A stretch of DNA of 64,000 nucleotides from Escherichia coli (GTDB lineage Bacteria; Pseudomonadota; Gammaproteobacteria; Enterobacterales; Enterobacteriaceae), in the NCBI RefSeq assembly GCF_003019035.1, contig NZ_CP027447.1. One strand, written 5' to 3'. Below the pieces are notes generated by a model. That model searched no databases, was not told the origin of the DNA, and saw only the letters and a list, made by a program, of their open reading frames with translations. Position numbers and translations under genes: made by a program. Below, piece after piece: positions 63,217-64,000 of this stretch (positions within the stretch are counted from its first letter, which is position 1; each line of letters begins with the position of its first letter).

Positions 63217-63248
63217 TTGTCAGGCTCTGATCACAGAGCCTGACATCT
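63217..63248. terminator. Bidirectional terminator between marB and the convergent GH1 gene
   Basis: CAGGCTCTG-ATCA-CAGAGCCTG perfect hairpin. Confidence 0.75.
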
Positions 63249-63269
63249 CCGTAATATCTTCCTGAAGTC

Positions 63270-64000
63270 TCAAATATTTTCGCCATTGTTGGCGATGAGA
63301 TCCCGATACCAGTAAAATGACGCTTTACGTATCCGTTCCAGCGTTCCCTTCCCTTCGTTGTCTTTATCGACATAAATCATTCCGTAGCGCTTTTTCATTT
63401 CCCCTGTTCCGGCAGAAACCAGGTCAATGCAGCCCCACGGTGTGTAGCCAATTAAGTCAACACCATCTTCAACAACGGCTTTTTTCATTTCCCGAATATG
63501 GGAAGCAAAGTAATCAATGCGATAGTGATCGTTCACCGTGCCGTCAGCTTGTCTCTGGTCAACCGCACCAAATCCATTTTCGACAATAAACAGCGGCAAC
63601 TGGAAATGATCCCAGAACCAGTTGAGTGAATAACGTAGCCCTGCCGGATCAATTTGCCATCCCCATTCGGATGTATCGATATAAGGGTTGCTGACCAAAT
63701 CTCGTGGTTCAACATAATTCAGTTGCGGGTTATCTGGCGAAAATTGCGTAGTAAAAGACATGTAGTAGCTAAAGCCGATAAAGTCGACACAACCTCTGGC
63801 AAGAATCGCGTTATCTTCTGGTGTGATATCGAGGTTGAATCCTTTCCTGGCAAAGTAATTCAGCATATGTTGCGGATAATATCCACGAGCATGTACATCA
63901 GTAAACCAGTAACGACGATGCATCGCTTTCGTCGCCATCATCATATCGTTGGGTGCACACGTCAGAGGATAGATGGGGCACATGGCGATCATGCAGCCGA
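63270..64000 (-). CDS. 6-Phospho-beta-glucosidase (GH1, BglA-like), 3' portion; N-terminus lies beyond the window end
   Basis: C-terminal region with FIVENGFGA nucleophile motif and …[12 protein letters not shown]…, BglA-like; reading frame continues past nt 64000. Confidence 0.8.

Follow-up and report, generated by a model that had tools for sequence, protein, structure and literature searches.

A beta-glucoside phosphotransferase island, very probably the bgc operon, between marB and eamA in Escherichia coli

The window, that is, the whole analysed stretch of 64,000 nucleotides of Escherichia coli DNA (contig NZ_CP027447.1), ends shortly after the marRAB operon, inside a gene that runs toward marB on the opposite strand (Table 1). 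A glycoside hydrolase gene of family 1 (GH1), convergent to marB and ending 56 bp beyond it, was reported here in the first-pass annotation, and the spacer at 63214–63269 is indeed exactly 56 bp long. The stop codon of this gene, which we call bgcA, occupies positions 63270–63272, and the open reading frame continues up to the window end, where it is truncated, with no stop or frameshift within the 242 translated residues. The arrangement described for K-12, in which a convergent eamA follows marB, is also correct: in MG1655, eamA (b1533) lies 30 bp beyond marB (b1532).

The marB annotation is also present in the record of E. coli SCU-301, which is 100% identical to the window in this region. 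It should be noted that the marB coding sequence contains, at 63100–63130, a perfect 11-bp inverted repeat, GTGGTTGTTCC / GGAACAACCAC, with the arms 9 nt apart.

Table 1. Features at the right end of the window and genes of the island as they occur in SCU-301; protein functions are predictions from family models and alignments.
Feature	Position	Strand	Basis
ydeA	60033–61223	+	
marC	61248–61913	−	
marR	62125–62559	+	
marA	62574–62963	+	
marB, closing marRAB; left flank of the island	62995–63213	+	72-aa ORF; Pfam PF13999 MarB, E = 1.3e-33
marB–bgcA spacer, 56 bp, holding the left island boundary	63214–63269		
Perfect 12-bp stem with a 4-nt loop	63218–63245		Inverted repeat search, 100% complementary
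bgcA 3' half (GH1 6-phospho-beta-glucosidase), residues 238–479 and stop	63270–64000	−	PF00232, NF007154
Codons of the predicted 6-phosphate-binding loop, residues 432–442 from S432	63384–63416	−	Alignment with SmBgl
Codon of Glu377, predicted GH1 catalytic nucleophile, IVENG motif (residues 375–379)	63579–63581	−	Alignment with SmBgl
6-phospho-beta-glucosidase (bgcA), 479 aa	SCU-301 island, first gene	−	NF007154, 1031 bits
Carbohydrate porin, 557 aa	SCU-301 island	−	PF02264 LamB and Sugarporin_N extension
PTS IIA, IIC and IIB, lactose/cellobiose family	SCU-301 island	−	PF02255, PF02378, PF02302
GntR-family regulator, HutC subfamily	SCU-301 island, divergent	+	GntR HTH and UTRA effector domain

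The assignment of the truncated gene to the GH1 phospho-beta-glucosidases, proposed from the letters alone, is borne out at the level of predicted protein families. Pfam Glyco_hydro_1 (PF00232) matches 242 residues of the window part over profile positions 217–452 of 453 (E = 9e-55), and the NCBIfam model NF007154 (6-phospho-beta-glucosidase) matches it over model positions 235–476 with 507 bits; the identical full-length protein reaches 1031 bits, the cut-off of this model being 624. All 242 residues coincide with those of the intact 479-aa protein WP_096986983.1 of SCU-301 (242/242), and the window fragment is, judged from these sequence matches, the C-terminal half of a predicted GH1 enzyme of ~479 aa.

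The closest solved structure to BgcA is SmBgl of Streptococcus mutans (PDB 3pn8, 4f66, 4f79; 800 bits, 69% identity), while the structure of E. coli BglA (2xhy) is more distant, with 677 bits. SmBgl differs from BgcA in its context, as it comes from a Gram-positive host and has no porin gene in its setting. The substrate preference of GH1 6-P-beta-glucosidases is set by residues of the +1 subsite. Glu377 of BgcA aligns with the glutamate of the ENG motif in S. mutans 3pn8, and the nucleophile of SmBgl is Glu375, the residue exchanged in the E375Q mutant (PMC3605045). The BgcA loop 432–442 differs from the SmBgl sequence SAGTGEMRKRY in a single Arg-to-Lys change, and in the alignment K440 and Y442 correspond to Lys438 and Tyr440, through which the matching loop of SmBgl, whose structure was solved with 6'-P-salicin bound, binds the 6-phosphate (PMC3605045). 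Thus, BgcA has both the Lys/Tyr pair and the preceding Ala, not Trp, by which a 6-phosphate loop is recognized. The acid/base motif TFNEIN (residues 173–178) falls outside the window and is present in the identical SCU-301 protein.

The name "BglA-like" given in the first-pass annotation stands as a statement of paralogue resemblance and falls as a subfamily assignment. K-12 BglA (b2901) shares with BgcA the GH1 fold, the length of 479 aa, the same catalytic motifs and 59% sequence identity. However, the best NCBIfam model is NF007154 for BgcA and NF011589 for BglA, with the latter model scoring 694 bits for BgcA and 1152 bits for BglA itself. The loci differ as well: bglA lies between yqfB and ygfF and stands alone, with no PTS, porin or regulator of its own, unlike bgcA at the marB–eamA site. 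On the basis of the best subfamily model and the different locus, a reading of the gene as the bglA orthologue was ruled out. The 90%-identity protein cluster returned for BgcA (14,022 members) mixes 479-aa BgcA sequences with 557-aa BgcH porin sequences, which is probably an artefact of fused or mis-called gene products.

Five of the six island genes lie outside the window and are predicted from SCU-301, the best match, which agrees with the window at every one of the 21,006 bases compared (42995–64000) and which we used as a proxy for the continuation of the contig past 64000. In this genome, marB is followed by the genes for the GH1 enzyme, the porin, IIA, IIC and IIB on the minus strand, then by the divergent GntR gene on the plus strand, and then by eamA and ydeE, all six island genes being annotated intact. 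To the right of the island, intact eamA, ydeE, mgtS, mgtT and dgcZ stand in the K-12 order. The island is 6,277 bp long and has a GC content of 0.428, compared with ~0.48 in its flanks. The junction reads showed neither direct repeats nor an integrase or tRNA at either end of the island; the formal repeat search covered 63100–63400 of the window.

The proposal that the edge of the mar locus carries an insertion for sugar utilisation, most of it beyond the window, agrees with the predicted families of these genes, and the adjacent PTS and regulator genes that were to be looked for are all present in SCU-301. The accompanying proposal, that the GH1 gene takes the place of eamA in a strain-specific replacement, has in its favor that eamA is missing within the window where K-12 has it, but an intact 299-aa eamA stands immediately beyond the island in SCU-301, CFT073 and LY180, and the same junction recurs in 2,542 genomes, so that we give this reading next to no credence. 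That eamA should directly follow an insertion is the arrangement that the first-pass annotation had set against its own proposal, and it is essentially what we found. Since eamA is intact 6.3 kb further on, it is displaced rather than replaced.

The first-pass annotation also suggested comparing the junction downstream of marB across E. coli genomes. When 62995–64000 was compared by megablast with 5,426 complete E. coli genomes, 2,542 of them showed the marB–GH1 junction, and nearly all the others matched marB only. The island itself was found in 2,563 genomes (47%), of which 2,493 carry at least 80% of it; the copies are 95–100% identical to the query, with a median of one per genome. With this frequency, and with further occurrences in CFT073 and E. 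albertii, the island cannot be called strain-specific. Many B1 strains carry it, and the B2 strains SE15 and ST131 lack it. In the plasmid collection, the E. coli matches were two chromosome-sized records of 4.8–4.9 Mb and two unmobilizable fragments, in addition to which there was one weak Enterococcus match; the search of this collection gave no evidence of a mobile vector for the island.

The gene set and gene order of the island, together with the divergent GntR-type regulator, are those of the bgc operon, and nothing structural differs between them. The bgc operon was reportedly described by Neelakanta, Sankar and Schnetz in 2009 (Appl Environ Microbiol) in strain i484 as bgcE-F-I-H-A with a divergent bgcR, and their abstract is said to mention that it includes the porin BgcH, that it is present in E. 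albertii, and that it is widespread in phylogroup B2 and seldom found in commensals. None of the other beta-glucoside systems known in E. coli (bgl, asc, chb, bglA) has this composition. A literature search on the bgc gene names returned one secondary description, in which bgc is a five-gene operon including BgcE (IIB), IIA, IIC and BgcA, is controlled by the GntR-type activator BgcR, and serves the use of cellobiose, arbutin and salicin when the temperature is low (PMC3585215). The gene content expected of bgc (IIB, IIC, IIA, porin, phospho-beta-glucosidase and divergent GntR) is complete in SCU-301. The literature search on marB, eamA, cellobiose and island found nothing about this junction.

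In CFT073, the marB–eamA interval holds the six genes of the island as well, and we take bgc to correspond to c1955–c1960 of that strain; this six-gene cellobiose-PTS block and the presence in E. albertii would be further points of likeness to bgc. The CFT073 block c1955–c1960 is listed as "PTS system, cellobiose specific" and was found in UTI89, HS, SMS-3-5 and several B1 strains, but not in K-12 or O157:H7 (PMC2831201). The strain distribution given there (PMC2831201) agrees with the BLAST distribution of the island.

On the basis of gene composition, the secondary description and the presumed link to CFT073 c1955–c1960, we conclude with high confidence that the marB–eamA island is the published bgc operon and that the fragment in the window is the 3' half of bgcA. 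The feature has thus very probably already been described, as the bgc operon at its usual chromosomal site. One could suppose instead that this is a distinct cellobiose/beta-glucoside PTS island that merely resembles bgc, the published operon lying elsewhere in the chromosome. The names in the source database would allow this, since the protein-cluster member names are generic throughout and none is "bgc", and so would the distribution, since bgc is reportedly centred on B2 and the island is wider (47% of genomes, many of them non-B2). Nevertheless, the order IIB-IIC-IIA-porin-GH1 with a divergent GntR gene fits the description of bgc, the CFT073 region holds exactly six such genes, as does the c1955–c1960 block, E. 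albertii carries the island, as is reported for bgc, and the median among island-positive genomes is one copy. Taken together, a separate look-alike island appears unlikely, and we retain the identification as bgc.

Among the known systems, the bgl operon (bglGFBH) resembles bgc in being a cryptic aryl-beta-glucoside PTS with a GH1 phospho-beta-glucosidase and a LamB-family porin (BglH). It differs in having a single glucose-family EII(BCA) and the antiterminator BglG, whereas bgc has separate IIB, IIC and IIA and a GntR regulator, and the two lie at different loci.

Judging by the protein families and by what has been published on bgc, a mechanism can be proposed as follows. The LamB-type porin BgcH would pass beta-glucosides (cellobiose, arbutin, salicin) through the outer membrane, and IIB, IIC and IIA of the lactose/cellobiose family would import them with phosphorylation at C6; BgcA would then cleave the 6-phospho-beta-glucoside to glucose-6-phosphate and either glucose or a phenolic aglycone. 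Control of the operon would lie with BgcR, the divergent GntR/HutC regulator, and with CRP, and its expression in wild-type strains would be weak ("cryptic"). In the bgcE–bgcR spacer (SCU-301 locus 25624–25639), a CRP-like site occurs with 2 mismatches, a pattern whose overall frequency is that expected by chance. As to its history, the bgc island would have entered the Escherichia lineage long ago, taking the place of the ancestral marB terminator, and would now segregate as a presence/absence polymorphism, with K-12 presumably retaining the ancestral empty site.

The history was traced by scanning one genome per species with MarB, which gave 12 loci, and then by mapping proteins and reading junctions. 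A canonical terminator (GCCCCGC-loop-GCGGGGC and T6–8) stands between marB and eamA in Enterobacter spp., Superficieibacter electus and an Enterobacteriaceae isolate. The same stem, again followed by eamA but lacking the full T-run, occurs in E. whittamii and two other Escherichia lineages, and the K-12 hairpin GGCCCCGACATCTCGGGGC is the orthologue of the outgroup GCCCCG...CGGGGC stem. Because the outgroups show the order marB–terminator–eamA, the empty site is ancestral, and K-12 keeps it rather than carrying a deletion. The contig SMXE01000224.1, labeled "MAG: Caldithrix sp.", encodes MarA, MarB and EamA that are 100%, 94% and 99% identical to those of E. coli and almost certainly represents contaminating E. 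coli DNA that was binned into a Caldithrix MAG.

In the junction alignment, 63216 is the position at which the query begins to differ from the K-12 empty-site allele, and island-free genomes match the query only to 2–12 bases beyond the marB stop codon. The island is a genuine insertion, in exchange for which ~30 bp with the ancestral terminator were lost. The possibility that it altered the last two codons of eamA was considered and rejected, as other Escherichia empty sites share the TTAGCCTCT end of eamA; since this end is common to the island allele and those empty sites, it is K-12 that is the variant.

At the same junction, and with the same hairpin, the island also occurs in E. albertii. 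The DNA identity of this species to SCU-301 is 79–85% in the island genes and 80–90% in the flanks, and the corresponding values for CFT073 are 97–98% and 97–99%. The island and its flanks have diverged in step, indicating that the insertion is old and has been inherited together with the flanks.

In two genomes, remnants of the island were found. E. coli 2017.17.01CC (locus 4001–4470) has 139 bp of the left island end fused to a truncated eamA, and Escherichia sp. MOD1-EC7003 (locus 10217–10310) has the hairpin and 32 bp of bgcA fused to eamA. These lineages once had the island and lost it imprecisely, and such independent losses leave scars that look unlike the clean empty site.

Such scars raise the question of whether the GH1 gene in the window is itself a decaying remnant, that is, a pseudogene of the kind expected where the island is being lost, the more so as an O121:H19 strain has IS600 inside the island and LY180 has lost bgcA beside an insertion sequence. 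However, the part of the gene in the window has no interruption and its product is 100% identical to the matching part of an intact 479-aa protein, it encodes the catalytic nucleophile and the phosphate-binding residues, and the six island genes are annotated intact in the identical SCU-301. A check for disruption of this reading frame had been proposed beforehand, and the frame is intact over the entire window part. A pseudogene is therefore very improbable, and we regard bgcA as a complete gene cut by the window end. In LY180, a derivative of strain W that is engineered or evolved, bgcA is missing (locus 1–3075), and an IS4-like ISVsa5 and an autotransporter gene adjoin the porin gene in place of bgcA and the mar genes, leaving the operon without its hydrolase.

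In E. coli 1532MA, marR-marA-marB is base-for-base identical to SCU-301 (locus 18978–20215) and to the window, yet the site is empty, and SNPs relative to SCU-301 resume just to the right of the junction. This sequence pattern suggests that a recombination breakpoint lies at the boundary of the island. The occurrence of one marRAB haplotype with and without the island is consistent with allele exchange by homologous recombination.

The spacer between marB and bgcA contains the hairpin that the first-pass annotation called a perfect hairpin terminator. The perfect hairpin was recovered by the inverted-repeat search as a 12-bp stem with the arms TGTCAGGCTCTG (63218–63229) and CAGAGCCTGACA (63234–63245). 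Its predicted RNA fold has a free energy of −22.8 kcal/mol on the plus strand (z = −4.85 relative to shuffled sequences) and −23.3 kcal/mol on the minus strand. The term "terminator" did not hold: the stem is followed by no T-run on either strand, and a terminator scan of 62000–64000 gave 0 sites. Without a U-tract, the hairpin is not a canonical intrinsic terminator, and a role as a bidirectional terminator may be no more than proposed. A search of 60000–64000 against Rfam gave no match. The hairpin is conserved in E. albertii and in Escherichia sp. MOD1-EC7003 with one change at the stem top, and it occupies the place of the ancestral marB terminator.

A second hairpin, ACGCACAGAGTG ... CATTCTGTGCGT, with one G-T pair, lies in the convergent bgcR/eamA gap of SCU-301 (locus 26452–26497). 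A hairpin is thus found at the right island end as well, and the island brings its own stem-loops at both borders.

For the mar locus, these data mean that the marB–eamA gap has two old Escherichia alleles, the ancestral site with the terminator only and the bgc island, and that island-bearing strains are without the canonical marRAB terminator. This polymorphism is relevant when mar-locus expression or mar 3' ends are compared between K-12 and clinical isolates. Beyond correct annotation, the finding of bgc itself matters little, as it is a described accessory operon for sugar utilisation.

A further-reaching interpretation would be that, by removing the intrinsic terminator of marRAB, the insertion lets mar transcription enter bgcA convergently and thereby creates regulatory cross-talk between bgc and mar. 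If so, about half of E. coli would have convergent mar read-through into bgcA, and a pathway for aryl-beta-glucosides that would free phenolic aglycones (saligenin, hydroquinone) would adjoin the phenolic-sensing MarR system, so that adjacency could couple the use of beta-glucosides with the multiple-antibiotic-resistance response. We consider such cross-talk decidedly unlikely, because unrelated cargo at the same site in other Enterobacteriaceae indicates an insertion hotspot rather than a functional linkage.

The cargo in question was found in two genomes, comprises 5–6 kb in each, and is unrelated to bgc; insertions thus seem to recur in the marB–eamA gap of Enterobacteriaceae. In Citrobacter sedlakii (locus 10217–15360), a LuxR-type regulator and a 1,379-aa protein without a Pfam match lie between the marB terminator and eamA. 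In Superficieibacter sp. 1612_C1 (locus 10217–16173), the same interval holds a four-carbon acid-sugar kinase-like gene, a class II aldolase, a DeoR regulator, a GntP permease and an oxidoreductase.
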